A DNA stretch of 64,000 nucleotides from Eledone cirrhosa (lineage: Eukaryota): contig OZ024742.1 in assembly GCA_964016885.1 (NCBI GenBank), positions 223,510,001 to 223,574,000 of the forward strand, written 5' to 3'. Of the stretch, positions 24,498 through 52,720 are shown in pieces. The notes below the pieces were generated by a model that was not told the origin of the DNA, searched no databases, and saw only the letters and a list, made by a program, of their open reading frames with translations. Positions within the stretch are counted from its first letter, which is position 1, and each line of letters opens with the position of its first letter. The translations under genes were made by a program, and so were the position numbers.

Positions 24498-25023
24498 TAG
24501 TATTGCCACAACCAGGGCTGGCAAAGAAGTAAGGGTCTGGTGGTACATAAGTAAGCAACACTGTGGCTTAAAACGTGAGGAAGAAGTTGTGTGCACTTAC
24601 CAACTGTTTGGGGAATGAGTGTGAGATTTGTCTCGAGTAAGGGTGAGAGAATAACTGGAGGAAGCAGACAGCCAGACATACAGACAGATATTATAAGGGC
24701 ACGTTCTGGACGCAGAGCGAATTGTAGGAAGTGACGTAATGCAGACAGCCAGACATACAGACAGATATTATAAGGGCGCGATGTTATATGTATGTATATA
24801 TCTAAAAAGAGAAAGACTAAGAATTATAGAGAGAGATCGCTAAATCGCCTAATGCGGTCTCTAGGGCATTGAAAATTTGAAATTCTTTTTTGCTCAGAAT
24901 ACTCCCTGAAACATAAGTATTACATGTGTAAAGTTTGAAAACAGTCGGTTGGGTGCTTCTCTTGTTTTAGGGATTCAAACTCACACACACACAGACAGAC
25001 ATCCTCAGTTTTATATATATAGA
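24498..25023 (-). mobile_element. Non-autonomous Helitron (third unit of a head-to-tail array)
   Basis: Minus-strand start TCTATATATATAAAAACTGAGGATGTCTGTCTG. 3' hairpin TTGCCA...TGGCAA followed by CTAA. Confidence 0.65.
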
Positions 25024-25800: not shown

Positions 25801-25863
<63 letters not shown>

Positions 25864-25889
25864 CACACACAGAAATGTATATATATTTC

Positions 25890-25926
<37 letters not shown>

Positions 25927-26743
25927 TACACACACAGAAATGTATATATATTTCTGTGTGTATATATATATATTTCTGTGTGTGTATATATATATATATT
26001 ACACACACAGAAATGTATATATATTTCTGTGTGTGTGTATATATATATTACACACAGAAATGTATATATATTTCTGTGTGTATATATATATATTTCTGTG
26101 TGTGTATATATATATATATTACACACACAGAAATGTATATATATTTCTTAGAACAAAATTATTATTAATGTTTTGCTGTTCATAACAATTGGAATTGAAA
26201 AATTACTTTTGAAATTATTAGTTATTTTACTAATGCTTAGATATGTAAAATGAAGCAATGTTTCTAATAATTGTTTCTACTTTTGGCACAAGGCCAGCAA
26301 TTATCCAGTACATTACTGGTACTTTATTTTATCGACCCCGTGAGGATGAAAGGCAAAGTTAACTTCGGCGGTATTTGAACTCAGACCGTAAAGGGACGTA
26401 ACTCCATGTTATGAAGCATGGTGTCCGACTCTCTACAGATTCTGCCAATCCACCGCCCTAATGTATGTACGTAATGAGGGAGTAAGAGGGGAGAGAAAGA
26501 AAGGCAGAGGTGAAGTGACGAAGTGACTCTCTCCTCCTCATCCTCCTCCATCTCCCCATTCATCACAGCGATAGAGGGGAGGAATGTTAGTGTGTTACAA
26601 AGAGAAAGAGTGAGAGTGAGAGAAACAGACAGACTAAAAGAGAGGGATAGATAGAGAGAGAGAGGGATAGCAACCACGCGCGCACGTGTTTCCACTGTCG
26701 GACAGACAGACAGAGAAATTGCTGGTTATATATTATAAGGAGA
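25024..26743 (-). mobile_element. Non-autonomous Helitron unit carrying a captured SINE and a hairpin minisatellite
   Basis: 5' TCTCCTTATAAT. 3' hairpin ending in CTAG. SINE at ~26265-26460. Confidence 0.8.
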
Positions 26744-27340
26744 CTAGCAGAAAACCACCCGGTGGGCGGTTTTCTGCTAGCAAATCTAGTGTATATACTG
26801 ATATTGTTGAGATTTGGATGAGAAATGTTTTCGGCACCACATGTTCACCGTCTCTCGGTGTGTCTTTTATGCATGTAAAAATATATATGTTATCTATACG
26901 GTGAAATCTTTGAAATAAATATGTTAAAACGAAAAAGGAGAAAAAGAGATTAGTGACGGAAATATAAACGTTATGATACATAAACGTTATGATATAACGA
27001 TGGAAATATATCTTCAAATGGTCCTTGGCATGGTGTCAAGTCAGAACTGGTTACTTCTGGCTTGTGCAAGGTGTCTCTACAGCAACCAGCGATTCCCTCG
27101 GCCTCAGTGAGCAAAGTCAGTGGAGAGGGGAAGGTAATGTTTCTATAGCAACAGTGTTTCTCTTGGTAGTACCAAAGTGGAGAAAGGAAGGGGAAGGTAA
27201 TATTTCTGTAGCACCTACATTTGAGTTTTAGGGAAGGACAGACAGACAGACAGACAGACAAACAGAGAAATGCCCATATATTTCTGTGTGTATATATATA
27301 TATATATATTACACACACAGAAATGTATATATATTTCTGC

Positions 27341-27382
<42 letters not shown>

Positions 27383-28071
27383 CACACACAGAAATGTATA
27401 TATATTTCTGTGTGTATATATATATATTTCTGTGTGTGTATATATATATATATTACACACACAGAAATGTATATATATTTCTTAGAACAAAATTATTATT
27501 AATATTTTGCTGTTCATAACAATTGGAATTGAAAAATTACTTTTGAAATTATTAGTTATTTTACTAATGCTTAGATATGTAAAAATGAAGCAATGTTTCT
27601 AATAATTGTTTCTACTTTTGGCATAAGGCCAGCAATTATCCAGTACATTACTGGTACTTTATTTTATCGACCCCGTGAGGATGAAAGGCAAAGTTAACCT
27701 CGGCGGTATTTGAACTCAGACCGTAAAGGGACATAACTCCATGCTATGAAGCATGGTGTCCGACTCTCTACAGATTCTGCCAATCCACCGCCCTAATGTC
27801 TGTACGTAATGAGGGAGTGAGAGGGGAGAGAAAGAAAGGCAGAGGGGAAGTGACGAAGTGACTCTCTCCTCATCCTCCTCCCCATTCGTCACAGCGATAG
27901 AGGGGAGGAATGTTAGTGTGTTACAAAGAGAAAGAGTGAGAGTGAGAGAAACAGACAGACTAAAAGAGAGGGATAGCTGGAGAGAGAGAGAGAGATAGCA
28001 ACCACGCGCGCACGTGTTTCCACTGTCGGACAGACAGACAGAGAAATTGCTGGTTATATATTATAAGGAGA
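26744..28071 (-). mobile_element. Non-autonomous Helitron unit (tandem duplicate of 25024-26743 with indels)
   Basis: A|TCTCCTTATAAT start and CTAG end joined directly to the TC of the next unit. SINE at ~27597-27795. Confidence 0.8.
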
Positions 28072-28856: not shown

Positions 28857-29873
28857 GAGAACAAGTTATCGTTATAGGTAATCCAGTCAGAGGTTGTGAG
28901 TACTCTGTATTGTAGATAGTTCTAACGTACGCCGTTGTTTGACTCAACAATAGGTTTCCATAGTTAGGTAGCGAGTTCGCGAGAATTCCTATGCAGGTTA
29001 TTATTGGAGTAATAATAGTGAAAGATTGAAGAATAACATGGTCGGCTGTACAAAAAGGGTCTTATTTCTAGTATTAACAATTGTTTCATTGATCAGGTGA
29101 GTCTAAAGGCCGCTAATCACTTGAAGTTGCGTCACTTGACCTTAAATACAGTGTTTACCTCTAATCAAATCATCGGAATACTGGAGGTTTTACATATGGC
29201 ATTGGTATTTATAGATACCACGGAGAATCAAAACAGTAACATCAATAATAAAAGATAAAAAAAAAGTTAGAATGAAGATGATAAAGATGTAAAAAATAAG
29301 TAAAACGATAAGTATAGAATACGATTGCTGATAATAGTGGTGGTGGTGATTAAAGTTACAGTGGTGAGTAAGTGTATGTGTAAAGACATGATGAGAGTAG
29401 AGATAATAATACTAACATGAAATGAAACATTAAATACATACATACGTAGTTGTCAAATCTCAGAGGGTTAGAGTAGAAAATAAAAAATAGTAACAAATAA
29501 CAGATAAAAGATAAAAGATAAAAAATAAAAAATAAATTAAAAATTTAGTGAGCGGGGAAGGGATACAGAACAGGAGACAGGGAGTGGGGGTGGCGATACG
29601 AGGATGAGACATAAGGGGTAGGGCCAAGGACGGGGAAGGAATAGATAGGTAGATAGAGAATAAAAATTGAGAGGGAGAGATACCAATGCCATATGTAAAA
29701 CCTCCAGTATTCCGATGATTTGATCAGAGGTAAACACTGTATTTAAGGTCAATTGACGCAACTTAGAGTGATTAGCAGCCTTTAAACTCACCTGATCAAT
29801 GAAACAATTGTAAATACTAGAAATAAAACCCTTTTTGTACAGCCGACCATGTTATTCTTCAATCTTTCACTAT
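28855..29873 (-). mobile_element. TA-inserted foldback element with two long-stem-II hammerheads
   Basis: Inverted arms at ~29015-29208 and ~29680-29873. GAGTACTC in the tail at ~28898. Confidence 0.8.
29705..29820 (+). ncRNA. Type I hammerhead variant (CCGAUGA core, ~80-nt stem II domain)
   Basis: AGTATT-CCGATGA-TTTGATCAG...CTGATCAAT-GAAA-CAATTG-TA-AATACT. Mirror copy at 29068-29183 on the minus strand. Confidence 0.65.
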
Positions 29874-29998: not shown

Positions 29999-30018
29999 TA
30001 TATATATATATATATATA

Positions 30019-30845
30019 TATTGTTATACTTGGGGAGGGTCATATTGTTGTAATAATATTGCCAGCAATGATAATGGAACACACTGTTTGGTTGGTTTTT
30101 GCTTCTGTATCTTTTATATCTCCATAGTTAATTCATTTGGCCATCAATGTTTATCATTTACTGACCAACGGTCAAAAATTTATATAAATATCTAAACATA
30201 GAAATGACCCAGCAAATCAGAGAAGCAAGCGAAATAGAGCTTAGAAAGCCAAAGCTAAACAGAAAAAATGAATGGAATAACAACAACACCCAAACAAACA
30301 ATACTGACTTAAGAGAAATATAAATAAATAAATAAATAAATAAATATATACACAAGCACAATAACAACAAACACATATAAACACACACTAATAAACTAAG
30401 ATAGGATACAATAACCAAAACACAGTCACCCAAACGTGAACACACGCACCAAACACTATACACACACGCAAACGCAGAGATGAAGACAAAAATAAATAAA
30501 TAAATAAATAAACAGATAAAATAAAAATGGCGTAGACATACAATACAACAGGAGGAAACATAATAGTACCACTGATGATGTTGCAGATGTGCAACGAAAG
30601 AACTTTGGTAGACTATATATATGTATCTATATCTGTATTTTTGACCGTTGGTCAGTCAATGATAAACATTGATGGCCAAATGAATTAACTATGGAGATAT
30701 AAAAGATACAGAAGCGAAAACCAACCAAACAGTGAGTGTGTTCCATTATTATTTCTGGCAATATTATTACAACAATATGACCCTCCCCAAGTATAACAAT
30801 ATTTGTTTCAACACACAATTTCATATAAAAAATCTTGCAAAACAA
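30019..30845 (+). mobile_element. TA-inserted foldback element with a hammerhead at 30567-30610
   Basis: Arms at ~30019-30178 and ~30637-30802. TACCA-CTGATGA-TGTTGCA GATG TGCAAC-GAAA-GAACTT-TGGTA. Confidence 0.8.
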
Positions 30846-31250: not shown

Positions 31251-31800
31251 ATATAAATGAAGTATTTCCATAGGAAAGGTAAAGGAAAAGAGAGTGCTCT
31301 ATGTAGGCTACAGAGCTTTTTAGTTATGTAATAAATAACATAAGATAATTATTTCATTTACCAGTGGTTTCTTGAAGACAGATACTTATGTCTGTCTTTA
31401 TTCACCAGAAGAAATATTTATTTATGAAATAGTAATATGGATTTGAAAACAGAGTTTAGGATAAATGAAAGTGAGGCTGAAATAAGATAACGGGCAAAAA
31501 TTGAGGGGAAAAAAATTAGTAAATAAATATCCAAATACATACTATTACGTATATGCATGAGTTTGAGTAGGTGTATGTTTATGTATTTGGATATTTATTT
31601 ATTAATTTTTTCCCTCTCAAATTTTGCCCGTTATTTTATTTCAGCCTCACTTTCATTTATCCTAAACTCTGTTTTCAAATCCATATTACTATTTCATAAA
31701 TAAATATTTCTTCTGATGAATGAAGACAGACATAACTATCTGTCTTCAAGAAACCACTGGTAAATGAAATAATTATCTTATGTTGTTTATTACATAACTA
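31251..31800 (-). mobile_element. TA-inserted foldback element; hammerhead at 31706-31770 (+), mutated mirror at 31351-31415
   Basis: Arms at ~31321-31543 and ~31575-31800. ATTTCTT-CTGATGA-ATGAAGACAGA..TCTGTCTTCAA-GAAA-CCACTGG-TA-AATGAAAT. GAGTGCTC in the tail. Confidence 0.82.
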
Positions 31801-31808
31801 TATATATA

Positions 31809-32186
31809 CAAAATGGATATTTAATTTGTTGGTATATCAACAAATATATATGTTTATAACTGATTCGAAGCACTCAACAAGTTTTCTGGAGTATAATATC
31901 AATGATATTAAATAAATGGAAACTATATTTATAAAACCATATTTATTCTATTATATATATTTCAAGGGTACCAAAACTTTGGTACGCTCTCATCAGATAA
32001 AATACAAAGTTTGTATCCAGGAAAATCTTGAACCGTTAAGATCTTCTTCCTGGATATGTTAATATTTATAAAACAAACTTTGTATTTTATCTGATGAGAG
32101 CGTACTAAAGTTTTGGTACCCTTGAAATATATATAATAGAATAAATATGGTTTTATAAATATAGTTTCCATTTATTTAATATCATA
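31809..32186 (-). mobile_element. TA-inserted foldback element with two hammerheads (31944-32004 minus, 32083-32143 plus)
   Basis: TATTTTAT-CTGATGA-GAGCGTAC..GTACCCTT-GAAA-TATATA-TA-ATAGAATA. GCACTCAA in the tail. Confidence 0.85.
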
Positions 32187-32211
32187 TATATACATATATA
32201 TATATATATAT

Positions 32212-32958: not shown

Positions 32959-33875
32959 AAGGATTAGAATACTGGAGCGTGTTGGAGTCAAACACCCTCT
33001 TCGTATTATAGAAATGACAGTAAAAGGTATAGCTCAATGCAGTTAAACAGAGCCAAAAAATTAAGAGAGTAAAACAAAGAATCCTTTAATACATCAAAAG
33101 TTTTTATTAGCCGACAATGTTTCGTCCTATTAAGGACTCATCAGGGCAATCAAAACAACAAGAGGTAATATCGGCAGATACAAGCCAGAAACTCTGAAGA
33201 ATATGGAGTGTACATACACTAATGTCTTACAAAAATATATGATAATAAAAATGAAAATAAAGATAAAAATAATAAAAATATATAATAAGAATAACTAAGG
33301 ATGTAGATAACATTAAGAACCATATTACAAATATAGTCCAAAGCAACTAACCTAAATCTCAACAAATTTGGTTATATAGAGCAGGAATTATATATAACAC
33401 AATATAATACATTATAATAATAATATACTTCTACCAACATTAAAATTCCAAATTAAAAATCAAAAGGTACAATATATACATGTATATATGTGCGCACACA
33501 CACACACACACACACACATATATAACAACACACACATCTATGTTCCACTACACAAAATTAAGCCCTATTAGAAGTTTGAATATTAAAAATAAGCATGATA
33601 AGAGTGAAAATAATACTAATACATCTACCCAATATACATGAGGCAATAATATGATATAATTACAAGAAACACATATAACAAATAATAAACAACAAAATTA
33701 TATAATTCAATATAATATAATAAAATAGATAATCCCCGGTTAATTTACAGAAACAATATAGATGTCACAATAAAATACAATGATAAAACGTTAACATTTA
33801 CCATAAACAATATATACAAATTGATTCATACTGGGTTACAGAATAAATGAGGAAAAATAAATTATATAATACTCA
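32959..33875 (-). mobile_element. Penelope-like pseudo-LTR fragment between TA tracts
   Basis: Contains a canonical minimal hammerhead followed by AATAAA on the minus strand. Confidence 0.65.
33110..33147 (-). ncRNA. Minimal type I hammerhead ribozyme
   Basis: GCC-CTGATGA-GTCCT TAAT AGGAC-GAAA-C ATT GTC-GGC. All core bases are canonical, with a GUC cleavage triplet. Confidence 0.88.
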
Positions 33876-36044: not shown

Positions 36045-36640
36045 TATGCTACTTGTAACATGTATCCCAGTACAACCTGTCTCATGGTCGGGTCGTTGGC
36101 GACTAAACTGGCAACCCCACCAAGGTTTCTTGGTGAGGAGGGTGACTTTGGACATCCTGCAGGACTAAAAACAAAACCTGTCAAAGGGCAAAGGAGCTCT
36201 TAAGAGTCAATGGCCATCCAAAATCACCGGGAGAGATGACTCCTTAGCCTTGGTCAAGGCAGAATTCTAGGAGAAGGAAAACTCTGATATAACACCTGCA
36301 ACCCTGATGGTATCCAATGATGTTGACTTGTTCTTCTTTTTGGTAAATATCATCTTGGTTAAGAGAGTGGGACTGGCTTTGTGCAGTGCCTTTGCTCACT
36401 ATAAAAGCTTCACGGCACAAGCATTGCTTTATATCTGGAGATCTCTCTGCACTTGTCGTCACATGGTACCATAGGCCCAGCACTATGTGTCAATAATTGT
36501 CACAAGTGTAGTGTTTGTACCAGAGTTTTCAAGTCGCTGGCTGGACTAAAAAGTCACATTCGTTCAGCGCATCGGTAGGGGTTCTCCTACATGGATATAA
36601 AGTAGTGGCCGTACTCGAAAACGAGTTGGCAGCCACCATA
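36045..36640 (+). mobile_element. Bipartite non-autonomous RTE derivative (putative 5'-UTR part plus C2H2 finger and 3' end)
   Basis: 36501-36578 encodes HKCSVCTRVFKSLAGLKSHIRSAHR*. 3' stem-loop CTCG-AAAA-CGAG. The 5' part is related to 5750-6015, 4690-5010 and 6770-6990. Confidence 0.7.
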
Positions 36641-37744: not shown

Positions 37745-38170
37745 TTCATCATCATCACTGTTTTACGTACATTTTTCCATGCTAGCATGGGTTAGACAAG
37801 TTGTCCTGTTGTGGGCAATGCTAGGTCAGGTGACCATGTCTTGCTCTTACAGAACTGATTTTGGCTTGGGTTCTACAGCTGGATGCCCTTCCTAACGCCA
37901 ACCTCATTTATAGTGAGTACTGGATGCCTTTTGTCATGACACCTACACAACCACTTTACAGTGTGGACTGGGTGCTTTTTGTCACGACACCTATATGACC
38001 ACTTCACAGTGTGGACTGGGTACTTTTTGTCGTGACACCTATATGACCACTTCACAGTGTGGACTGGGTACTTTTTGTCATGACACCTACACAACCACTT
38101 TATAGTGTGGACTGGGTGCTTTTTGACGTGACACCTACACAACCACTTTACAGTTTGGTTGGGACGCTTT
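37745..38170 (-). mobile_element. RTE 3' UTR with 42-bp tandem repeats
   Basis: ACCTAYAYRACCACTTYAYAGTGTGGACTGGG repeated about 5 times; (CAT)n end. Confidence 0.8.
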
Positions 38171-38575: not shown

Positions 38576-40665
38576 AATAATAATAATAATGAAATTATTG
38601 TGTAAAGTGCTCAGGTGCACTACAACTCGTCAAAGGTGCATGTATAGTACATAGAATAATATACAAATGTCAGGGAAGTGAACAGTGTATGAGTCATGAT
38701 ATACATGTGTGTATGTGAATGGAGGGGGAATATTAGGTGTAGTGTTGGCGAATCTCGGGAAGCATGGAGGTTTTAAAGGATGCAGTGTCTCGACAGCTAA
38801 CAACTGATGCAGGTATTTTGTTCCATGCTTCAGCAACTCTGAGCGTGAAAAAATGTTTCCGAAAGTCATGGGAACTGTGCTGTTTTCTGACTTTGTGGAC
38901 ATGTCCACGTGTGTTAGACACATGGAAATCAAAAAGGTACTCAAGGTTGTTGTTGGCAAGATCGTTAACAATTTTTGGGGCATTTACCAAGTCAGTTGCC
39001 AGGCGTCAGAGCTTCAGTGTATCCATGCCCAGGGAAGCAAGGCGTTCAGAGTATGGTAGATGCCTGATGGAGGGTATTCGCTTGGTTGCACATCTCTGAA
39101 CAGTTGCCAGGCGGTAAATATTCTGAGCAAGATAGGGGTTCCAGATTGGTGATGCAAATTCTAAGTGTGGCCGCACCATAGTCATGTACAGCCTTAAATA
39201 GATAGCTGGAGAGCGGCTGACAAACGTCTTGCTGAGTGATGCTAAGACACCCTCAGCCCTCTTGAACATTTTAGAGACGTGCTTCGCCCAATGCAAATCG
39301 CTGCTGACCGCAATGCCCAGGTCACGTTCACAAGAAGACTTCTTGATATTAGTATGTGGACGCTGGGTTTTTACTCCTAAAATGCATGGTCGTGCTCTTG
39401 TCCACAGCTAGCTTGAGTTGCCAGTCTGAGATCCATTGTTGCATTGTGTCCAGGTCAGACTGCAAGCAAGATCTATAGTGTTCAGGATCTGTCCTTTTTA
39501 TCTCAAGGTACAGCTTGATGTCATCTGCATACTTTAGTACTGTGGCATTCTTTAAGTTGGCATCTATGTCATTAATATATGCCACAAACAAAAGGGGGCC
39601 AAGAACAGATCCCTGTGGTACACCAGATGACATCTCATATGGTGAGGAATGCTATCCCAGAACCATGACTACCTCTCTTTGACTGAGAGTGAAGGACTTC
39701 AACCAGTTAAAAAGATCATCCTTCACACTCATTGCAGAGAGTTTTGCCATAAGCCTTTTGTGTGGCACAGAATTGAAAGCTTTCGCAAAGTCAAGGTAAA
39801 CAACATCCACCTATGAGCCGCCATCAGTGATCCGGGTGATGTCCTCAAGAAACTCGATAAGTTGATCACAGCAGCTGGAGTTGGGGATAAATCCAAATTG
39901 CGAGGGCCGGATAAGACTGTGAGAGCTCCAGAAGTTCCAAAGTGTTTCTCTGACACAGGATTCCATCAGTTTGGCGATGCAACTAGTAAGACTGACTGGA
40001 CGATAGTTCACAGGTGATGTGCGGTCACCCTTTTTGAACAGAGGAATGACACTGGCAGTTTTCCATTGTTCTGGAGTAGCACCGTTGTTCAGACAGAATT
40101 GGAAGAAGCGTGATAGCTGGTGCAGAACGAAGTACCCACCACGTTTAAGAAGCAGGTACATAACACCATCAAGACCAGGAGAGGCATGGTTGCGTTTATT
40201 TTTTAGGTGACGTCACAGCATTGCAGGTGTAAATTCCATGGTTGTAATAGAGTCCGGTGTCATAGGTGGTGGAGACGGTACACTCTGGTCTTCAATAGTG
40301 AAAATGCCTGCATAGCATTCAGCAATGAGCTCTGCACATTCCTTGGGGTCGTCAGTAACCTGGCTTGTGTGGGGATTGTGAAGAGGACCAACTGGAGAGT
40401 GAGGCCTCTGCTTTGAGTGAACATACTTCCAGAACACCTTACTGTCAGGGCTGGTTGCTATGTGCTGCTCAAATTGAAGCACTGCCTTTTTTGTCACCTG
40501 TTTGAGTTGGTTGGACGATTTATTTTGCCTCTTCCTATTGATGTCTGATTTGTGCAGTTTGTACTCACGTTCAGCATTGCGACGTTCTTTTCTGGCAAGA
40601 CGGACTGCTGCAGTCTCCCAAATTGCACTTTTGGGATGTTTTTCCGCTTACGTGGCACCGATGCT
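38576..40665 (-). mobile_element. 5'-truncated CR1 LINE (RT region, disrupted)
   Basis: NYRPVSLTS, GVPQGSVLGPLLF, KYADD, VRPHLEFA, TRGH and FFTLRVAEAWNK motifs; (ATT)n tail. Confidence 0.92.
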
Positions 40666-41469
40666 GGATAACATCTAACTGGATAACATTTGACTGGATA
40701 ACATCAGACCCAATCCAGCAGCTTTAACTGGCCATAATATATATGGCCTTCAGGGATGGAACATACAATAGCTTCTTTAAAACTAACAAGAAACAATAGT
40801 GGTTTTCCAGGATGCAGCTTCAAAGGAGGTACGTTAAACCTACAGGGTGTAAGCTGAAAGATTTCTACACTTTTTTTTTTCATCTAATGCCCTTTTAGAG
40901 AATATATTTCAGTAATGACTCTCATTATGTTCCAAGTTTGATCCTGGCATCTTGGACAAGTATCATTTATCATGGCCTCAGGTTGACTCACTCACATCTT
41001 GTAAGTGAAATTGCTGGACAAATTTTATGGGCAAAACCAATCAGCAGGAGACCCAGGGGTAAACCTTGAGTAATGACGATGATGACAAAGACGAGCAAGA
41101 TGGTTGGATAACATCTATGAGCTTGGCTGGTCTTGCTTGGGGATCCATCAGGATCAGTTGGAGACGGTTGCTTCTGGCAGGACCCACTGAAGGGAGAGTT
41201 TGAGGACTCTTCCTCCACGACCCTCTCAGGAATAAGTGGGCAAAGAAGAAGACTTAACATATTATTCTTACATAAAATTATGTTGGAAGATTTTAACTTA
41301 AATAGGAACCTCTTGAAATGGGTGCTTTTATTTCATAGAACCAGAGCTGGTTTTGGCTAGGTTGGTATTTGAATGATTAAAGAGTGTGGAGATCAAACCT
41401 CCCAAATTGAACAGATACACAGCTAAAATAGAAAAAAAAAAAGAAAAAGAAAAGATAAAATAGAAAAAT

Positions 41470-42625
41470 ATATAAGTATATACACGTGCATACATATATG
41501 TATACAGACGTACAGTAGTATGTATATATATATACATACATGCACACATATATATATGTACGTATGGATTCACCGAACATTTATTATAATGCTCGGTGTG
41601 TTTGTAAACAAACATCCCGTATTAAGCCGTAGTGTCTAGCAACCATCGTTGCTCATTTGTTCAACACTGACAAAGGAACACTGTACTAGTTTCAAGCTTA
41701 TTAGCTATCGTCAGCAACGTATACCTTCTTGCCAGATTGTTGAACGTATATACTTACCTTATGCATATTAACGGCTGAGTAGCCCAATTTGCATATCGAG
41801 TGGGTTAATCGGCTGGGTGCACCGAAAACGATAAACGGAAAAAATGAAACGAAATTTCATTTCCCACTCTTAGTACAGCTGTTACTTAAATATAAGTATG
41901 TACACGTACATACATATATGTATACAGACGTACAGTAGTATGTATATATATATATACATACATGCCGATGGTTGCTAGACACTACGGCTTAATATGGGAT
42001 GTTTGTTTACAAACACACCGAGCATTATAATAAATGTTCGGTGAATCCATAAGTACACATATATATGTGTGCATGTATGTATATATATATACATACTACT
42101 GTACATCTGTATACATATATGTATGTACGTGTACATACTTATATTTAAGTAACAGCCGTACTAAGAGTGAGAAATGAAATTTCGTTTCATTTTTTCCGTT
42201 TATCGTTTTCGGTGCACCCGGCCGATTAACCCACTCGATATGCAAATTGGGCTACTCAGCCGTTAATATGCATAAGGTAAGTATATACGTTCAACAATCT
42301 GGCAGGAAGGTATACGTTGCTGACGATAGCTAATAAGCTTGAAACTAGTACAGCGTTCCTTTGTCAGTGTTGAACAAACGAGCAACGATGGTTGCTAGAC
42401 ACTACAGCTTAATACGGGATGTTTGTTTACAAACACACCGAGCATTATAATAAATGTTTGGTGAATCCATACGTACATATATATATGTGTGCATGTATGC
42501 ATATATATATATACATACTACTGTACATCTGTATACATATATGTATGTACGTGTACATACTTATATTTAAGTAACAGCCGTACTAAGAGTGGGAAATGAA
42601 ATTTCGTTTAATTTTTTCCGTTTAG
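41470..42625 (+). mobile_element. Inverted plus tandem array of a 420-bp hammerhead-containing unit (retrozyme/pLTR-like)
   Basis: GATGGTTGCTAGAC at 41967 and 42387. 41470-41964 is the reverse complement of the unit. Confidence 0.82.
42314..42356 (+). ncRNA. Type I hammerhead ribozyme (mirror copy at 41678-41720 on minus)
   Basis: ACGTTG-CTGACGA-TAGCT AATA AGCTT-GAAA-CTAG-TA-CAGCGT, with a possible distal stem I extension. Confidence 0.82.
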
Positions 42626-42862
42626 AAAAATATAGTTTTGAGAAAATAAACTTGCTCGACCTGTTTGAAAACAAAGCTTCATGTATTATCAAGAAAAGGT
42701 GGATTAATGAGAACATTTTTATTTTCTGTATGTGGAAATAGAAAATATGCATGGCTGTGTGATTAAGGGATTCTGGGTTCAGTCTTGTTGTGAAAGTTGA
42801 GCAAGTGACTTCTGCTAAACATACATTCACTCACACACACACATATGTACACACATATATAT

Positions 42863-42911
<49 letters not shown>

Positions 42912-42915
<4 letters not shown>

Positions 42916-45403
42916 AGTCTGTGGCTGGAGCAGGCCTGTAGGCAGGAGGAGAGTAACATGGTGGTGGAACAGTAAGGTGGAGGGGTCAATTAAGGCCAAA
43001 AAGCAGGCTTGGAAAGTATGGCGGGATGGGGGAAGTAGAGAAGACTATCAAGTGGCCAGGAGGGAAGCTAGGAGACAAGTGTACTTCGCAAGAATGGAAG
43101 CAGAGGAAAGAAAGTTCAAGCATGTTCTACAACGTGAGGACCAAAAACGTGAGGTGTTCAGGATTGCTAGGCAATGTGTCAAGGAAAACAGTGATATTGT
43201 CGGGGAGAAGTGTGTACTTAACGATGACGGCGTACTTGCCATCACCGACGCCGATAAGAAGGTAGCTTGGAAGTGTCACTATGAAAGGCTACTAAATGAG
43301 GAGAATAAATGGGAGAAAGACAGTCTCCCCCACATCGACCCAATAGAGGGACCAGCAGTGTTAGTCGAGGGTAGTATAATAAGTAAGGCAATCAAAGATA
43401 TGAAGACAGGCAAGGCGGCTGGGCCTTCGGAAATAGTTGCCGAGATGCTGAAGGCATCTGGTACGGTGGGACACACCATGGTCACCCGGATAGTCAACCA
43501 AGTCATACAGAATGGGGTTGTTCCGAAGGACTTGCGTAGCAGCATTATCGTTAACTGTTATAAGGGTAAAGGAGATGCCCTAGATAGGAGTAACTATAGA
43601 GGCATTAAATTAATCGACCAGGTCATGAAGGTCACGGAAAAAGTAATAGCGCAACTAATCAGAGAGCGAATTGATCTAGATGAAATGCAGTTCGGGTTTG
43701 TGTCAGGAAAAAGTACCACAGACGCTCTTTTCATTGTACGACAACTACAGGAGAAGTACCTAGCTAAAAGTAAACCCCTATACTTAGCTTTCGTCGACTT
43801 AGAGAAGGCCTTCGACAGAGTCCCCCGTTCCATTATCTGGTGGGCTCTTAGAAAACTAGGTGTTGATGAATGGCTTGTGAGAGCCATAGAAGCCATGTAT
43901 AAAGAAACAGTCAGCAAGGTTAGAATTAACAACGAATATAGTGAAGAGTTTAGTGTAAAAGTTGGTGTTCATCAGGGCTCTGTTCTTAGCCCCCTACTAT
44001 TTATTATTGCCCTCCAGGCTATAACAGTGGAGTTCAAGACCGGCTGCCCATGGGAACTCCTATACGCAGATGATCTAACGCTCATAGCTGAATCAATGGC
44101 CGAGCTAGAGAAGAAATTCCAAACATGGAAGCACGGAACTAGAATCAAAAGGCCTTAAAATTAACCTGGCTAAGACTAAAGTTCTAGTTTGTAAGAAAGA
44201 AAATAAGGCGGCGGTCCCCTCCGGGAAGTGGCCATGCGCAGTGTGTAGGAAAGGCGTAGGTAGAAATTCCATTTTGTGTCCCAAATGCAAAGTTTGGGTG
44301 CATAAAAGATGTAGTGGGATCACAGGTAAGCTAACTAAGAACATAGATTTTACATGTGGCCGGTGTTCTGGGGCAATAAGTAGCAGCAAGTGCCTACAAA
44401 ATACTAGCTCTTTCAACTGCGCAGAGGGTTCTATAGAAATAGTGGACAGCTTCCGTTACCTGGGTGACAAAATCAGCAGTGGGGGAGGGTGCTCTGAAAG
44501 TACAGTAGCTAGAGTCAGAACTGGGTGGAAAAAGTTCAGAGAGCTTATACCACTATTAGCCGCTAAAGGGTTCTCCCTAAAAATGAAAGGCAGGCTGTAC
44601 GATGCCTGCATACGAACAGCAATGTTGCATGGCAGTGAGACCTGGGCATTGTATGCAGAGGATATACGCAGACTAGAGAGAAACGAAGCTTGCATGCTCC
44701 GCTGGATGTGTAATAGTAATATACGTGAACGACAAAGCATAAACGAACTAAGGAAAAAATTAGAAATAAGAGGGATCAGATGTTGTTTACTAGAGAGAAG
44801 GCTACGTTGGTATGGTCACGTGATGCGCATGAAGGACGATAGCTGTATAACAAAGTGCAGGGCAATAAAGATAGACGGTAGCCACGGAATAGGCAGACCC
44901 AGAAAAACCTGGGACGAGCTGATAAACTCCGACCTCACACACTTACACCTCACCAAGACAATGTCACTGGACCGAGATCTTTGGCGGTACTCAGTAATAG
45001 AGAAGACCCGCCTTACCTAAATACAAAGTAAAACCTACTACAGTCAGTAGGCATCTCTAACAAAATACACCACCCCCACCCCATCCACACCGCCCCCTTC
45101 AATGTAAAGTTATGTCGGTGCCACACCATCCAGGCCGAAACAAATGAGATCGTGTAGGTGTCACGACAAAAAAACACACAGTTCACGCTGTAATGTGGCC
45201 GTGTAGGCAACACGGTAAAAACCTCCCAGACCCACACTGTAAATGTGGTTGGTGTTAGGAAGGGCATCGAACTGTAGAAAACCTGCCAGACAGTCCTATG
45301 CGAGCAAGACAATCACTCTTGCCTCAAGTGGGAAAACCCCCGTCCAAACCCATGCAAGCGTGGAACACGGACGTTAAACGTTGATGATGATGATGATGAT
45401 GAT
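42912..45403 (+). mobile_element. 5'-truncated RTE LINE (RT+PHD) with a frameshift at ~44140, TA-flanked
   Basis: Very similar to 15226-17700. ORFs 42845-44158 and 44241-45020. Confidence 0.93.
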
Positions 45404-45737
45404 ATATAAGAAATTAAAAGATGGTTAAAAAAGTTCCATATATTTTATTATGCGCATTTCCTGGGACGATAATTGCGTTCTCATCAGATAAAATAAGGTA
45501 ACATGATATGATGCCTAAAAACACTTGTGAACAAGAAAGTGTCCAGTCAACATATGTTGAACGCAATTATCGTCCCAGGATGATATTTGTTTTTGAAATA
45601 CGCATAATAAAATATATGGAACTTTTTTAACCAACTTTTAATTTCTTCTATATATATACTCCAATTCTATCAACTGTTGAGTGCTACTTATCTGATATAT
45701 GCATAGTTTTATTGTTCTACAATATAACTCACCTCCT

Positions 45738-45779: not shown

Positions 45780-48680
45780 TCATCATCATCATCATCATCA
45801 CCGTTTTACGTCCGTTCTTCCACGCTAGCATGGGTTAGACGGGTTGTCCTGTTGTGGGCAGTGTCTGGTCGGCTGACCATGCCTTGCTCATACAGGAACT
45901 GATCTGGCTTGATTTCTACAGCTGGATGCCCTTCCTAACACCAACCTCATTTACAGTGAGTGCTGGGTGCTTTTTCGTGGCGCCTACACGTCCACTTTAC
46001 AGTGTGGGCTGGGTGCTTTTTTGCCGTGGCACCTCCACGACCACCTTGCGGTGGGGGGGGGGGGGCATATTGTTTATATGCTTCAGCATGTACCCATGGG
46101 AGGTCGGGTACCCTGTATTACTGCGTGACGCCAGAAGTCACGGTCGTGTGTCATTGACTTTGAGAGGTGTAGTTGGGTAAGGTCGGCTTTTATCACCTCA
46201 TCCCAAGTCATCTTGGGTCTCCCCACTCCGCGGTTTCCATCAACTTCTAGTGCTCTGCACCTTTTTATGCAGCTGTCATCCTTCATACGCATCACATGTC
46301 CATACCAGCGTAACCGCCTCTCCTGCACGCAGCATTTGATTCCTCTTATGCTCAGTCTCTCTCTCAATTCATTTATGCTTTGTCGTTCACGTATATTACT
46401 GTTACACATCCATCGGAGCATGCAGGCTTCGTTTCTCTCTAATCTACGTAAGTCTTCCACCTTCAGCGCCCAGGTCTCACTACCATGCAACATCGCTGTT
46501 CGGATACACGCATCATACAGTCTGCCTTTCATTCTGAGGGAGAAGCCTTTTGCAGCTAGCAGTGGTAGTAGTTCCCTAAACTTCTTCCATCCCGTTCTTA
46601 CCCTAGTTATTGTACTTTCTGAGCACCCACCTCCGTTGCTAATTCGGTCACCTAGGTAGCAGAAGCTGTCTACTGTTTCTACAGGGCCCTCCCAGAGATT
46701 GGTGGTACTTGTTTCCTGTGGCTGTTTGCTTGCTGTTTCAGCACAGCTGCTGCATGTGAATCCTACATTCTTAATTAAGCTTCCTGAGATCCCGCTACAT
46801 CTCTTGTGTACCCATTGTTTGCATTTGGGGCAAAGAATGGAGTTCCTACCTACACCTTTCCTACATACTGAGCAAGGCCATTTCCCTGAGGGGATCTGGG
46901 TTCTGTTTTCTCGTCTACTTATAAGGACCTTAGTCTTTGTCATGTTGACTTTGAGGCCCTTTCTCTCTAGTCCCTGCTTCCAGGTTTGGAATTTATTCTC
47001 TAGTTCTACCATAGATTCAGCTATGAGTGCGAGGTCATCAGCATACAGGAGTTCCCATGGGCATCCGGTCTTAAACTCCTCCGTTATTGCCTGCAGGACT
47101 ATGATGAACAGGAGAGGGCTAAGAACAGAGCCCTGGTGGACCCCAACCTGTACGCTAAATTCCTCGCTATACTCATTGCCAATCCTAACTTTGCTGACTG
47201 CTCCCCTATACATGGCTTGTACCGCTTTCACAAGCCATTCATCTACTCCTAGTTTTCTAAGAGCCCACCAGATTACTGCACGTGGAACTCTGTCAAAGGC
47301 TTTCTCAAGGTCGACAAATGCCAAGTAGAGTGGCTTACTTTTAGCTAGGTACTTTTCCTGTAATTGCCTCACAAGGAAGAGCGCATCAGTGGTGCCTTTC
47401 CCTGGTACAAACCCAAATTGCATCTCGTCTATATTCACCCGGTCCCTAATCAGCTGTGCTATAACTCTTTCTGTTACTTTCATGACCTGGTCCATCAACT
47501 TTATACCTCTATAGTTTCCTCTATCTAGTGCATCGCCTTTACCTTTGTAGCAGTTGACAATGATGCTACTGCACCAATCTTTTGGTATGGCCCCCTCTAG
47601 TATTACCTGGTTAACGATACGTGTGGTTATAGTGTGACCTACAGACCCAGATGCCTTCAGCATCTCGGCAGCTATACCCGATGGACCGGTTGCCTTCCCT
47701 ATCTTCATATCTCTGATTGCCTTACTTACTACGCTGCCGCTGACTTGTACTGCTGGTCCCTCTATAGGGTCTACGTGGGGTAGGGTCTCTTCTTCCCATG
47801 CATTCTCCTCATTTAGTAATCTATCATAATGACTCTTCCATGCATCTTTCTTCTCAGCACTTGTGAGGGCAAGCTCACCTTTATCATTCCGGATACACTT
47901 CTCTCCAATGACATCACAACTATCTCTGACACACTGCCTCGCAATCTTGAATACCTCCTGTTTCTGGTCCTCACGTTGTAAAACATGCTTGAATTTTCTA
48001 TCCTCTGCTTCCCTCCTAGCTAAGTATACTTGTCGCCTAGCTTCCCTCTTGGTCTCTATGTAATGTACCCTGCTCCCCCCGTTCTTCCATTCTTTCCATG
48101 CCTGTCTCTTGGCCTTGACTGCTTCATCTACCTTATTGTTCCACCACCAAGTCACTCTCCTCCTGCTTGAGGTCTTACTCCAGCCACAAACCTCATCCGT
48201 CGCCTCTAGTAAGTTATTTTTTAGGAACTCCCAGTTCTCTTCTACGTTAAATGTCTCTATCTGTTCTTCTTTACTGTCGTAGGCGTTGAGTAAAATATCT
48301 TTAAATCTGTTACTGGTTGAGGGGACTTTCAGCTTCCAGATCTTTCTTCTCCAGGTTGGCCTCTGTTTCAGGGCTCGTCTAGTTCTGACCGTGAGGTCGC
48401 TGACAACTACGCTATGTTGGGATGTACATTCCTCACTAGGGAAGGCTTTTGTGTTTACGACCGTCCATCTGTCACGTCCTCTGATGAGGATAAAATCTAA
48501 CTGACTAGAGTGCTCCCCTGATTTATAGGTGATCAGGTGGTTGTCGGGTTTTTTAAAGTTTGTGTTACATATCGACATGTCATTGGCGTCGCAGAATTCT
48601 AGAAGTCTGAATCCTTCCTCATTCCTTGTGCCAACTCCATGGCCTCCATGTACTCTATTGAAGCCGTCGCAGTGTTTACC
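45775..48680 (-). mobile_element. 5'-truncated RTE LINE, second subfamily, TA-flanked
   Basis: Uninterrupted reading frame, 3' UTR and (GAT)n tail. Confidence 0.93.
46083..48680 (-). CDS. RTE APE C-terminal half plus RT with PHD finger (open frame, lacks N-terminus)
   Basis: 831-aa ORF extendable to 48680 (GKHCDGFNRVHGG...). Motifs FVDLEKAFD, HQGSVLSP, YADD and C4HC3 finger. Confidence 0.9.
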   Translation of the reverse strand, partial: GKHCDGFNRVHGGHGVGTRNEEGFRLLEFCDANDMSICNTNFKKPDNHLITYKSGEHSSQLDFILIRGRDRWTVVNTKAFPSEECTSQHSVVVSDLTVRTRRALKQRPTWRRKIWKLKVPSTSNRFKDILLNAYDSKEEQIETFNVEENWEFLKNNLLEATDEVCGWSKTSSRRRVTWWWNNKVDEAVKAKRQAWKEWKNGGSRVHYIETKREARRQVYLARREAEDRKFKHVLQREDQKQEVFKIARQCVRDSCDVIGEKCIRNDKGELALTSAEKKDAWKSHYDRLLNEENAWEEETLPHVDPIEGPAVQVSGSVVSKAIRDMKIGKATGPSGIAAEMLKASGSVGHTITTRIVNQVILEGAIPKDWCSSIIVNCYKGKGDALDRGNYRGIKLMDQVMKVTERVIAQLIRDRVNIDEMQFGFVPGKGTTDALFLVRQLQEKYLAKSKPLYLAFVDLEKAFDRVPRAVIWWALRKLGVDEWLVKAVQAMYRGAVSKVRIGNEYSEEFSVQVGVHQGSVLSPLLFIIVLQAITEEFKTGCPWELLYADDLALIAESMVELENKFQTWKQGLERKGLKVNMTKTKVLISRRENRTQIPSGKWPCSVCRKGVGRNSILCPKCKQWVHKRCSGISGSLIKNVGFTCSSCAETASKQPQETSTTNLWEGPVETVDSFCYLGDRISNGGGCSESTITRVRTGWKKFRELLPLLAAKGFSLRMKGRLYDACIRTAMLHGSETWALKVEDLRRLERNEACMLRWMCNSNIRERQSINELRERLSIRGIKCCVQERRLRWYGHVMRMKDDSCIKRCRALEVDGNRGVGRPKMTWDEVIKADLTQLHLSKSMTHDRDFWRHAVIQGTRPPMGTC

Positions 48681-48689
48681 TATATATAT

Positions 48690-49318
48690 GTGGAAGTTCT
48701 ATTTAAATTGTTGGGATACAACAAGCAAATATTTTTATAACTGATATAAAGCACTCAACAAATAATTGGAGTAAAAATACGATATTAACAAATGGAAACT
48801 ATATTTATAAAACCATATTTATTTCATTATACATATTTCAAGGACACCAAGTTAAATTATGGTGTTCTTTCATCAGATAAAATATAATGTAGAGCAGTTT
48901 TATAAATAAATATTGACATACCCTTAAAGAATGCGATCATTACTGTTGGAAGCTATCCAGGAGCTTCCAACAGTAATGGTCGTAGTCTTTAAGGGCATCA
49001 TCATCATCATCATCATTTTACGTCCACTTTTCCCTCATCTCATTTCTTCAGCTGAGGAAACTGGAGCAATGTGAAATAAAGTGTCTTGCTCAAGGACACA
49101 ACACATCACCCGGTCTGAGAATTGAACTCACAACCTTTCAGTTGCAAGGTCAATGCTCTAACCACTAAGCCATGTATGTCAATATTTATTTATAAAACTG
49201 CTCTATATTATATTTTATCTGATGAAAGCACACCATAATTTAACTTGGTGTCCTTGAAATATGTATAATGAAATAAATATGGTTTTATAAATATAGTTTC
49301 CATTTGTTAATATCGTAT
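48690..49318 (-). mobile_element. Near-complete palindromic hammerhead element (family of 31809), interrupted by a SINE fragment
   Basis: Hammerheads at 48820-48884 (-) and 49211-49275 (+). Central hairpin at 48921-48995. GCACTCAAC tail. Confidence 0.83.
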
Positions 49319-49328: not shown

Positions 49329-49739
49329 AGTTTTGCGAGGTTTTTGATATGAAATCGTGTGTCGAAACAAATATTGTTATACTTGGGGAGGGTCATATTT
49401 GTGTAATAATATTGCCAGAATTAATAACAGAACACACTCACTGTTTGGTTGGTTTTCGCTTATGGCGTAGGCATACAATACAACGGGAGGAAACATAATA
49501 ACACCACTGACGATGTTGCAGATGTGCAACGAAAGAACTTTGTTAGACTATATATATGTGTTTGTGTCTATATTGTATCTGTATTTTTGACCGTTGGTCA
49601 GTCAATGGTAACATTGAGGACCGAATAAATTAAATTAACCGATATAAAAGACACAGAAGCAAAATCCAACCAAACAGTGAGTGTGTTTTGTTATTAATTC
49701 TGGCAATATTATTACACAAATATGACCCTCCCCAAGTAT

Positions 49740-49745
<6 letters not shown>
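49329..49745 (-). mobile_element. Foldback element of the 30019 family; hammerhead core at 49502-49545 (+)
   Basis: High similarity to 30530-30845. CTGACGA-TGTTGCAGATGTGCAAC-GAAA. Confidence 0.8.
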
Positions 49746-49789
<44 letters not shown>

Positions 49790-52720
49790 TCATCATCATC
49801 ATCATCATCAACATCATTTAACGTCTATTTTCCACACTAGCATAGGTTAGACAGATTTTCCTATTTGAGGCAAGTCAGGTCAGGTGACCATCTCTTGCTC
49901 ATACAAAACTGTTCCTGGCTTGGTTTTTACAGCTGAATGCTCTTCCTAACCCCAACCACTTTTACAGTGTTGGCTGAGTGCTTTTTGTCATGGCACCTAC
50001 ACAACCACTTTACAGTGTTGGCTGAGTGCTTTTTGTCATGACACCTACACAACTACTTTACAGTGTTGGCTGAGTGCTTTTTGTCATGACACCTACACAA
50101 CCACTTTACAGTGTTGGCTGAGTGCTTTTTGTCATGACACCTACACAACCACTTTACAATGTGGGCTGGGTGCTTTTTGTCGTGACACCTACACAACCAC
50201 TTTACAATGTGGGCTGGGTGCTTTTTGTCGTGCTACCAACATGACCACTTTCCAGTGTGGGCTGGGTGAAATTTTTTGTCATGGCATCAAAATGACTACT
50301 TTATAGAGTGGACTGGACACTTTCGTGGGGGAGGTGTGTGGGGATTGGGGAGTTAGGTATAGGGACATGTGTGAGGAGCGGAGAGTTAGGACATGGGTGA
50401 GGGTGTCAGGATGTGGGAGGTGTATGGAAGGGAGATGGAGGCGAAGGTGGTGCATATTAGATGTATGCTTCAGCCTGTGCTCATGAAAAGGTGGGTCTTC
50501 TGTATTACTGCATAATGCTAGAGATCTGTCCTGTGTCATCGATTTTGAGATGTGCAATTATGCAAGGTCAGCTTTTTATCATCTCATCCCAAGTCTTCCT
50601 ACTCCATAGCTTCCAGCAACTTTGAGTGGTCTACATCATCATTTCATTTTACGTCCGCTTTTCCCTGCTTGCAAGGGTGGGACGGGAACTGATGCTGGCT
50701 TGATTTCTACAGCTGGATGCCCTTCCTAACACCAACCTCATTTACAGTGAGTGCTGGGTGCTTTTTTGCCATGGCACCTCCACGACCACTTTGCAGTGGA
50801 ATGATATGGACCCCAGTCCCTATCATCTCATTTCTACAGCTGAGTAAACTGGAGCAATGTGAAATAAAGTGTCTTGCTCAAGGAAACAACACATCACCCG
50901 GTCTGAGAATTGAACTCACAACCTTTCGATTGCAAGGCCAATGCTCTAACCACTAAGCCATGTGCCTCCATCTTTTTATATATTCGTCATCCTTCATAGG
51001 CATCACATGTCCATACCAATGCAATCTCCTCTCCTGCACACTACATCTGACCCCTCTTATGTCTAGTTTCTCTCTTAGTTCATTTATGATTTGCCATTCA
51101 TGTATATTACTATTACACATCCATCAGAGCAAGTAGGCTTCATTTCTTTCCAATCTTTGCAGGCTCTCTGTACACAGCGCCCATTTTGTCCATACACATG
51201 CATCATACAATTTATCCTTCATTTTGAGTGTAAAACCTTTTGTAGTTAGCAGCAGTAGTAGCTTCCAGAACTTTCTCCATTCTGTTCTTACTCTGGCTAC
51301 TGTACTTTTTGAATACCTTCCTCCACTGCTAATTTGGTCACTTAGGTAACAGAATCTGTTGACTATTTCTACAAGTCATCTGAAGGAGCTAGTATCCTAT
51401 GGGCTCTAGCTACTTACTGCACCTGTACATTGGCTGCACATAAAACTTTCGTTCTTTGATAGTCTGCCTGTGATCCCATTACATCTTTTGTGTATTTGGG
51501 ACATAGGATGGAATTTTTACCTTCTCCTTTCCTGCACACAATTTAACTTTAAGACCCTTTTGATTCTAGGCCATGCTTCCAGGTTTGGAATTTCTTAAAC
51601 TATTTTGTTATAGCCAGCAGGACAATAATAAACAGGAGAGAGCTAAGAACAGAGTCTTGTGGACACCTACCTGCACGCTAAATTCATTGTTAATTATAAC
51701 CTTGCTGACTCTTCCTCTATACATATGGCGTGTACAGCCTTCACAAGCCACTTATCTACTCCTAGTTTTTTAAGAGCCCATCAGATAATGGAATGAGTGA
51801 CTCTGTCAAAGGCTTTCTCCTGGTCAACAAAAGCTAAGTAGAGGGGTTTACTTTTAGCTAGGTACTTCTCATGCAGTTGTCTCATGAGTAACAGAGCATC
51901 TTGGCATAAACCCAAACTGTATTTCATCTAGATTAATTTGGTGCCTAATCAGCAGTACGATAACTCTTTATGTGACCTTCATGAACTGGTCAACCAACTT
52001 AATGCTTCTATAGTTTTCTCTGTCTAAAGCATCTCCTTTAGTCTTGTAGCAGTCGACAATGATGCTGCTACACCAATCATTGAGTATTTAGGAGATTAGT
52101 ATCGGTATACATATATGTATTATCAGAAATGACAATAAATGCCAGTGTGTTGTGACAAGGTTTTACTTCACAGAAGTCAAATGAATTAATATAAATAAAT
52201 GGTTACCCGTTGGTCACAACTCCTAGGCTGAAGTGTGTGGAGAAGAACAGAGATCTTCTCTTGGAGGTGTTAACATTTTCTTAAGCTGCCGGTGTCATTC
52301 TTCTTGAGTGGCAAAGGAAATGAGGCAGGAATTCTTCTTCTTGATGGCAAAGGAAATGAGACAGGAGTCATCTCATGACAAGGTCGCAGGTGTTGTTAAC
52401 ACTTTGGAATTCAGGAGGCGAGAGAGTGAGATCGCCCTGACCCATCCCTTTTATAGGGTCCCAGGGCGGAAGTGACAAAAAGGGTTCTGCCACCCCAACG
52501 GGAAGTAACTCCAGCTACTTCCTGTCTAGAGAGCGGTGATGTGATTGTCATAACAAGGGAGGCAACTCTTGCTACAAGTATGACACTGTTTTGTATTACT
52601 TGGTTTACAATATGGGTGGCCATGACATGACTCACCATCCCAGATGTTTTCAGCATCTTGGCAACAACTATCCCCAAAGGTCCAGCTGCTTTGCCTGTCT
52701 TCATATCTTTGATTGCCACT
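49790..52720 (-). mobile_element. Older degraded RTE LINE with a nested SINE (50635-50972) and a solo LTR
   Basis: Homologous to 45775-47710 with many indels. 42-bp repeats in the 3' UTR. Confidence 0.85.
52088..52576 (-). mobile_element. Solo LTR (~490 bp) with 5-bp TSD AGTAT
   Basis: Interrupts a colinear RTE sequence. Ends T(G)TAG...CTACA. TATAAAA on the minus strand at ~52450. Confidence 0.7.

Follow-up and report, generated by a model that had tools for sequence, protein, structure and literature searches.

A head-to-head insertion of a 420-bp non-coding unit with a type I hammerhead-like motif, probably a decayed Penelope-derived element

We identified a non-coding 420-bp unit arranged head to head at positions 41470–42624 of the window (the whole 64-kb stretch of DNA analysed here, to which all coordinates refer). 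The reading we favour, with moderate confidence, is that this insert is what decay has left of a non-autonomous hammerhead element derived from a pLTR (a non-LTR retrozyme or mini-PLE, PLE standing for Penelope-like element); a PLE enzyme would have copied it from RNA that was multimeric or circular and came from another locus. The 420-nt unit is probably a PLE pLTR that turned into a unit of its own. Animal genomes commonly contain both hammerhead repeats and inverted insertions of PLEs, and the locus is unsurprising in itself.

The insert consisted of 1.57 copies of the unit on the plus strand (41966–42624) and 1.18 copies on the minus strand (41965–41470), approximately 97% alike. The copy at 41966–42385 served as the reference for numbering the phases of the unit. 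The parts of the insert and its edges were as follows.

41470–41965, minus strand: inverted arm, 496 bp, phases 106–420 followed by phases 1–179 (1.18 units), RNA 3' end toward the left flank
41966–42624, plus strand: direct arm, 659 bp, one whole unit (41966–42385) followed by phases 1–237 (1.57 units), RNA 3' end toward the right flank
41965–41966, no strand: head-to-head inversion junction, where the 5' ends of both arms meet; blunt, no microhomology or palindrome seen
42050–42145, plus strand: TA-rich, microsatellite-like stretch within the unit, present at least partly in all four partial copies
41461–41472, plus strand: target-site duplication, left copy, 12 bp (TAGAAAAATATA), the longest flank match; its last 3 nt overlap the minus-arm end
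42623–42634, plus strand: target-site duplication, right copy, 12 bp; its first 2 nt overlap the plus-arm end

Self-alignment of the plus arm matched 41966–42202 to 42386–42624 with 96.2% identity over 239 nt at a spacing of 420, which agreed with the plus-strand period (41967 to 42387) given in a preliminary description of this DNA, the exact ends being 1–2 nt off. The wrap-around of the same unit on the minus strand (41470–41964) was also recovered: phases 106–420 (41965–41649, 97.2%) were followed by phases 1–179 (41648–41470, 96.6%), the arm ending at 41470 and 41965. The term "tandem" used earlier holds for the repeat period, which is real, but the repetition is only partial, with fewer than two units per arm and no row for the 420 period in the Tandem Repeats Finder output (104 rows for the window). 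This silence is consistent with the presence of fewer than two units in either arm. The four partial copies differed by 2–7 substitutions per pair over 74–315 shared nt, and every phase of the unit was covered at least twice by both arms together. The arm ends differed by approximately 58 nt (phases 237 and 179) at this single locus. The GC content of the unit was 37%. No other copy was detected in the 64-kb window, where the remaining BLAST matches fell on the TA-rich stretch only. The 316-nt non-microsatellite part of the unit had no match in 50,697 phage records and the 31-nt hammerhead core had none in prokaryotic genome contigs, both of which are uninformative for an animal repeat.

The 12-bp direct repeat flanking the insert was missed in the preliminary description. 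When the edge windows were shuffled, 7 of 5000 shuffles gave an exact flank match of at least 12 bp, as did 6 of 1664 window pairs with the same spacing. Since this duplication frames both edges, the whole two-arm structure is, judged from the sequence, one insertion that would have arisen in a single event. No paralogous empty site for the flanks occurred within the window, and the duplication was called from the sequence match. The insertion target was A/T-rich DNA. Singletons accounted for 10 of the 11 variant sites covered by at least three copies. CpG bases held 9 of the 15 variant sites though they make up 44 of the 420 unit positions (binomial p = 4e-6), and 8 of the 15 were CpG transitions. 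The variants look like decay since insertion, mainly by CpG transitions. One site, phase 140, split 2:2 between the plus and minus copies; a two-template reading of it was set aside because it is a CpG and the probability of a parallel change at some CpG base was estimated as 0.43.

The longest stop-free stretch in the six frames of the unit was 61 codons, and Pfam returned nothing in the five reading frames overlapping the insert; on these grounds, a coding unit was rejected. In the 144 of 355 window ORFs scanned (among them all those of at least 55 aa that passed a complexity filter and started within 28759–56258; the 211 left out were mostly distant), Pfam gave no GIY-YIG match, and no autonomous EN+ PLE, that is, an ORF with RT and GIY-YIG, was found, with the caveat that divergent PLE endonucleases may escape Pfam. 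One simple pattern for Pol III promoters matched neither an A-box nor a B-box. The RT matches in the flanks belonged to separate long frames outside the insert. Related RT-encoding LINE frames, which we take to be RTE-like, were located at 14032–17344 (plus), 42809–45020 (plus), and 46083–48698 (minus); the copies at 43–45 and 46–48 kb face each other, and a PHD-like finger downstream of RT was detected by Pfam in the two that were scanned. Another LINE, presumably CR1-like, occupied 56255–60546 (minus); stops interrupt its AP-endonuclease and RT frames, and a 489-aa frame with Octopus vulgaris homologues precedes it. Its second, partial copy lay at 38630–40650 (minus; 39–40.6 kb). Three of the four homologues of the LINE-adjacent ORF at 59080–60546 were Octopus vulgaris proteins with 45–50% identity, which makes an octopod the probable host. 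A 57-aa frame at 36405–36575 (plus) gave one C2H2 zinc-finger match (Pfam E = 1.4e-5).

Both arms contained a type I hammerhead-like motif, as listed below.

42314–42356, plus strand: type I hammerhead-like motif of the plus arm, recognised by motif and helix anatomy; predicted cut after 42350
41678–41720, minus strand: minus-arm counterpart of this type I hammerhead-like motif, its core starting at 41714, recognised by motif and predicted fold; predicted cut after 41684
42289–42375, plus strand: extended helix I with internal loops, 42289–42310 paired to 42358–42375 in predicted folds

The type I core (CUGANGA, GAAA, and UH) and helices I–III were intact in both arms. In the plus arm, a 6-bp helix I (42314–42319/42351–42356) is followed by CUGACGA at 42320–42326, a 4-bp helix II (42328–42331/42336–42339) over a U.U at its base (42327/42340), and GAAA at 42341–42344. 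The base of helix II thus has U.U in place of the usual purine-pyrimidine (usually G-C) pair. Helix III comprises 1–2 bp inside a 6-nt palindrome, and the cleavage triplet GUA ends at 42350, where the preliminary description had placed it. At up to three mismatches, the 31-nt core matched twice in the window (42320–42350, plus; 41714–41684, minus) and never in 100 shuffles. One hammerhead per unit had been proposed; one per arm was indeed found, but there are only two in all, one per strand.

Folding gave a graded picture. The distal extension of stem I suggested earlier was recovered as a predicted pairing across 42289–42375, longer than first described, with z = −2.6 for the plus copy (reached by 2 of 200 shuffles) and −3.9 for the minus copy (by 1 of 200). 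The internal loops of this predicted extension, which could serve loop 1–loop 2 tertiary contacts, may resemble those of the Schistosoma type. Shuffles folded as well as the bare 53-nt core did (z = −0.1 and −0.2), and a monomer constrained to the active fold was worse than the free fold by 6.8 (plus copy) and 13.1 kcal/mol (minus copy). A dimeric hammerhead did not emerge from the unconstrained co-fold of two cores; the duplex of the 6-bp palindrome was computed at −6.8 kcal/mol. No Rfam hammerhead appeared at the locus among the 150 of 175 window matches listed, and local Rfam scans with E up to 10 gave no match in 42200–42450 and a weak miRNA match only in 41600–41850. The miRNA matches (mir-297 and others) were rejected, being mostly on the TA-rich stretch and far below gathering scores. 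Because no Rfam match was obtained, the hammerhead was called from its motif and helix anatomy. The motif is a plausible candidate ribozyme with a predicted cleavage site; the missing Rfam match, the missing G-C at the base of helix II, the costly monomer fold, and the failure of the co-fold to give the dimer speak against activity.

Canonical metazoan type I hammerheads cleave well only with a neighbouring copy, according to the available text of PMC4209133, and their helix sizes match those found here (helix I, 6 bp; helix II, 4 bp; helix III, 1–2 bp and palindromic). The axolotl hammerhead HHR_Amex2 likewise combines a short helix III with a basal U.U in helix II, but its helix III is 2 bp long and capped by a tetraloop, and its cleavage was shown and is better as a dimer, whereas the motif described here is a predicted one (PMC7229834, as far as available). 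Among frog retrozymes, one of nine predicted dimers cleaved in vitro (bioRxiv 10.64898/2026.07.22.740005, available part).

The circularised unit was predicted to be 70% paired (z = −7.2; 0 of 100 shuffles). Without the microsatellite, z was −4.75, and values of −4 or below occurred in 2 of 48 background windows, both of them located on other elements of the inverted hammerhead type. For the antisense strand, z was −3.4, and the self-pairing is not strand-specific. RNA reading through the whole insert was predicted to be 93% paired (−879.7 kcal/mol), as a hairpin of approximately 500 bp with the ribozyme inside the inter-arm duplex. The cleavage site has 385 nt before it and 274 nt after it in the plus arm and 282 and 214 nt in the minus arm. 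A monomer needs two cuts on the same strand 420 nt apart, and only one site is present per strand; the locus therefore cannot itself release a 420-nt monomer or circle, and it is best regarded as a product of the cycle, not its source. The earlier proposal of a circular RNA source at this locus is thus not supported, there being no two sites in cis in either arm. Reverse transcription of a circular or multimeric template, also proposed earlier, fits the copies longer than one unit; the inversion, in contrast, provides no evidence for a circle and is a usual PLE structure. This single locus fits a circle, a linear multimer, or template jumping alike.

A candidate spliceosomal intron enclosed the hammerhead in both arms.

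42277–42367, plus strand: candidate 91-nt intron enclosing the hammerhead; donor GT at 42277, branch-like CTAAT at 42330–42334, pyrimidine tract, and CAG ending at 42367
41667–41757, minus strand: the candidate 91-nt intron as it occurs in the minus arm, with identical splice-like signals

The consensus donor lies 43 nt upstream of the hammerhead core, and the branch-like CTAAT is in helix/loop II. Among 20000 shuffles of the unit, the consensus donor arose 98 times and donor, branch, and acceptor together twice, by criteria chosen post hoc; the window held four other such donors in 127,600 strand-bases. The acceptor and branch also form part of the ribozyme helices, which leaves the donor as the one independent sign of an intron. 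None of the 13 other hammerhead-type cores checked had an upstream donor. The next ATG after the candidate intron (42388) opened only 20 codons and was stopped in all three copies. The extended helix I would, in the predicted fold, pair the candidate 3' splice site. If real, the candidate intron indicates that the unit descends from a pLTR and that its template was unspliced. The 5' UTR in the pLTR of Penelope retains a 75-bp intron (PMC2377424, available text). In the Penelope of D. virilis, however, the intron stops where helix I begins (PMC4209133), while the candidate described here spans the whole core. Intron retention in PLEs and the role of their hammerheads are stated as open questions in the available text of PMC8557442, and a real intron here could link the two. 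As a separate observation, an inverted repeat at 29015–29873 with 194-bp arms (96%) ended at a TA run and carried inward consensus donors at 29094 (plus) and 29794 (minus); no hammerhead core was found in it.

A more specific reading of the candidate intron appears unlikely to us: a cephalopod retrozyme family in which the hammerhead sits in a 91-nt intron derived from a PLE pLTR, and whose transcript would either be spliced or, with the ribozyme folded, stay unspliced, be cut and circularised, and serve as a template around which a PLE enzyme rolls. The corresponding spliced fate, in which the ribozyme would be lost and 329-nt units remain, seems equally doubtful. We would likewise be surprised if the extended helix I covered the 3' splice site while helix II carried the branch point as parts of such a choice. 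If true, ribozyme folding would be linked to intron retention in PLEs, and the inverted, duplication-flanked insertions of the family would be direct structural evidence of PLEs mobilising retrozymes. No report of an intron-enclosed retrozyme hammerhead was found in the literature as far as available, with supplements, subscription papers, and repeat libraries outside the search.

The window contained further inverted repeats with hammerhead-type cores.

3596–3916: hammerhead-type head-to-head inverted repeat, outward-facing core in each arm
31321–31800: hammerhead-type head-to-head inverted repeat, outward-facing cores, one of them degenerate
31896–32191: hammerhead-type head-to-head inverted repeat, outward-facing core in each arm, approximately 80% related to the element at 48777–49318
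48777–49318: hammerhead-type head-to-head inverted repeat, outward-facing core in each arm
30018–30802, 49371–49747, and 45402–45653: inverted repeats, each with a single hammerhead-type core that lies within an arm or between the two; the first two approximately 82% related

Outward-facing hammerhead-type cores in both arms were thus present in four of the ten other inverted repeats examined, so inversion is ordinary in this window; it is the 420-nt period in both arms that distinguishes the locus. The four elements (3596–3916, 31321–31800, 31896–32191, and 48777–49318) are of different families, with a long helix II, ends mostly at TA runs, and no period longer than a unit; they are probably truncated PLE ends. 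The hammerhead scan of the window returned 21 rows, 12 of which were dropped as simple-repeat matches (a variant core in an A/T-rich tandem repeat near 20 kb); nine hammerhead-type cores were kept, compared with none in 19 of 20 shuffles and two in the other. Isolated cores with no clear inverted partner were seen at 18583 (plus), 23867 (minus), and 37545 (plus). A solitary, canonical-looking type I hammerhead at 33106–33150 (minus) matched RF00163 with 31.7 bits and E = 6e-4, a score under the gathering threshold; among the 150 of 175 matches listed, no other was to an Rfam ribozyme. This hammerhead had no second copy in the window. Other repeats included a direct duplication of approximately 1.3–1.7 kb (87–94%) at 24987–28071 with palindromic TA-rich units and short 16-bp repeats, and a dispersed 48-bp tandem repeat family (5070–5195, 37899–38158, and 49953–50268).

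PLEs are typically arranged as a partial tandem next to which lies an inverted, 5'-truncated copy (PMC8557442, available text). Rotifer PLEs lie head to head with duplications of 8–10 bp, even where pLTRs act in trans (PMC3846280), and in Schistosoma, hammerhead pairs occur on opposite strands 100–700 bp apart (PMC4209133). The present insert shows the same pattern of a partial tandem, an inverted 5'-truncated copy, a head-to-head junction, and a short duplication. At A/T-rich DNA, the PLE protein of the anole nicks each of the two strands and extends them, beginning at an internal point of the RNA (PMC11167929, available text); such two-strand nicking with internal starts would yield the geometry seen here.

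On the favoured reading, a donor array elsewhere would have been transcribed into unspliced multimeric RNA. By analogy with known families, hammerheads, probably as dimers via the palindromic helix III, may have cut this RNA to monomers, which were then presumably circularised. The RT/GIY-YIG enzyme of an autonomous PLE may have made a staggered cut in the A/T-rich target; the duplication is seen at the locus, and the enzyme is supposed. Both target ends would then have acquired cDNA from phases 237 and 179, running past one unit, where the geometry is visible and the priming presumed. The two cDNAs would have been joined head to head, repair leaving the 12-bp duplication that is seen, after which the copy would have decayed mainly by the CpG transitions found in it.

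Other histories can be proposed for the same insert. The main one, to which we give a small but appreciable chance, is that it represents the rearranged 3' end of a longer, possibly coding PLE, formed once; no retrozyme family would then exist, and the 420-nt length would merely reflect where truncation happened to fall. PLEs do frequently form partial tandems in which the upstream copies are truncated to varying extents (PMC2377424 and PMC8557442, available text), and a candidate intron followed by an ATG resembles a pLTR 5' UTR, but this ATG opens only 20 codons, stopped in three of three copies, and no reading frame exists upstream or downstream of the ribozyme. The steps of such a history, to which we give the same modest weight, would be a start of reverse transcription at a fixed site (phase 237), 420 nt of synthesis, a jump to that site on a second RNA, a further 237 nt, and a switch to its own cDNA that produced the inverted arm. 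The minus arm is nested wholly in the span of the plus arm, as this fold-back requires (39% by chance), and the left end overlaps the target by 3 nt, or by 7 nt in a register shifted by 2. Against it, the junction lacks the microhomology expected for fold-back, the variants pair neither the first plus with the first minus copy nor the second with the second, and the arms end 214–274 nt past the cleavage site rather than the approximately 33–56 nt of three other hammerhead inversions in the window. Mobilisation of the same non-coding unit in trans by an AP-endonuclease LINE, with twin priming as in L1 and no PLE, is decidedly improbable. Twin priming yields head-to-head inversions, target duplications, and end microhomologies (PMC2912911, available text), the target is A-rich, and RT-encoding LINE frames flank the locus; however, both arms lack a terminal poly(A) or simple repeat, the junction microhomology presumed for L1 twin priming (PMC2912911) was not seen, inversions in the window recur specifically with hammerhead-type elements, and complex tandem or inverted pLTRs are not seen in non-LTR target-primed insertion according to the available text of PMC8557442.

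Duplication and inversion of a solo element at the DNA level, or an assembly artefact, would be a very improbable origin. Such structures do trouble assemblies (PMC8557442, available text) and the unit has slippage-prone TA runs, but the 2–7 substitutions per pair among the four partial copies, with their enrichment in CpG transitions, and the 12-bp duplication framing both ends argue otherwise. That the locus itself is the source of a 420-nt circular RNA has almost no probability in our judgement: all phases of the unit are present and both hammerhead cores are unchanged, but there is one cleavage site per strand, the predicted pairing of 93% (−879.7 kcal/mol) places the ribozyme within a duplex, and the second donor required for back-splicing would fall at unrolled position 732, past the arm end at 657. 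Several observations count against the favoured reading of a PLE-copied, pLTR-derived unit as well. There is no third copy or array in the window, and no autonomous PLE in the 144 of 355 ORFs scanned; the motif has no Rfam match, no G-C at the foot of helix II, a costly monomer fold, and no co-folded dimer; and the minus-arm nesting, the offset of approximately 58 nt, the lack of a junction palindrome, the antisense folding, and the size of 420 nt do not favour it.

Compared with metazoan non-LTR retrozymes, the unit is alike in being non-coding and a few hundred bp long, with a GC content below 50% and one type I hammerhead per unit (PMC7229834; bioRxiv 10.64898/2026.07.22.740005; available text of both); strong predicted self-pairing, a duplication of more than 4 bp (here 12 bp), and copies longer than one unit are also shared. 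A working definition of an active retrozyme is two consecutive units with complete hammerheads (bioRxiv 10.64898/2026.07.22.740005). The locus differs from active retrozymes in that neither arm reaches two units and each strand has a single hammerhead, and because of this, membership of the unit in a retrozyme family is provisional. The available text of PMC7229834 and of bioRxiv 10.64898/2026.07.22.740005 does not mention a head-to-head inversion or such an intron for retrozymes. A mollusc retrozyme is known from the mussel, with 350–390 bp (same two sources), and 420 nt is slightly over the approximately 170–400 nt quoted for invertebrate circles (PMC7229834). No report of an octopus hammerhead repeat was found in a search that left most subscription papers, Repbase, and Dfam outside; 31 recently active Penelope-like families are described in Octopus vulgaris (PMC13282606, available text). 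MRC1 of Chlamydomonas is likewise a non-coding PLE derivative, with pLTR-like and head-to-tail multicopy insertions, but derivatives of this type come mostly from a clade without canonical hammerheads (PMC8557442).

The preliminary description had treated a retrozyme and a Penelope pLTR as alternatives, an opposition that dissolves if animal retrozymes are pLTR-derived, as has been argued (bioRxiv 10.64898/2026.07.22.740005, available part). EN+ PLEs differ from the insert in that no RT or GIY-YIG frame was found here and the period is 420 nt rather than approximately 3 kb; the arm-end offset of approximately 58 nt compares with a PLE tail of 30–40 bp (PMC8557442), and the junction palindrome of rotifer PLEs (PMC3846280) is absent. 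Their pLTR insertions share with it the arrangement, the short duplication, the A/T-rich target, and a type I hammerhead with a palindromic helix III (PMC8557442, PMC3846280, PMC4209133, PMC2377424, and PMC11167929, as far as available), as well as unequal arm ends; the candidate intron near the ribozyme, if real, would be a further likeness, as a retained intron of the 5'-UTR type. For non-LTR retrozymes, reverse transcription of multimeric or circular RNA has been proposed (PMC7229834 and PMC7761336, available text), and co-occurrence and similarity to pLTRs are the grounds on which PLEs have been argued to mobilise animal retrozymes (PMC7229834; bioRxiv 10.64898/2026.07.22.740005). A retrozyme-like unit bearing the full insertion footprint of a PLE is a separate line of evidence for such mobilisation.
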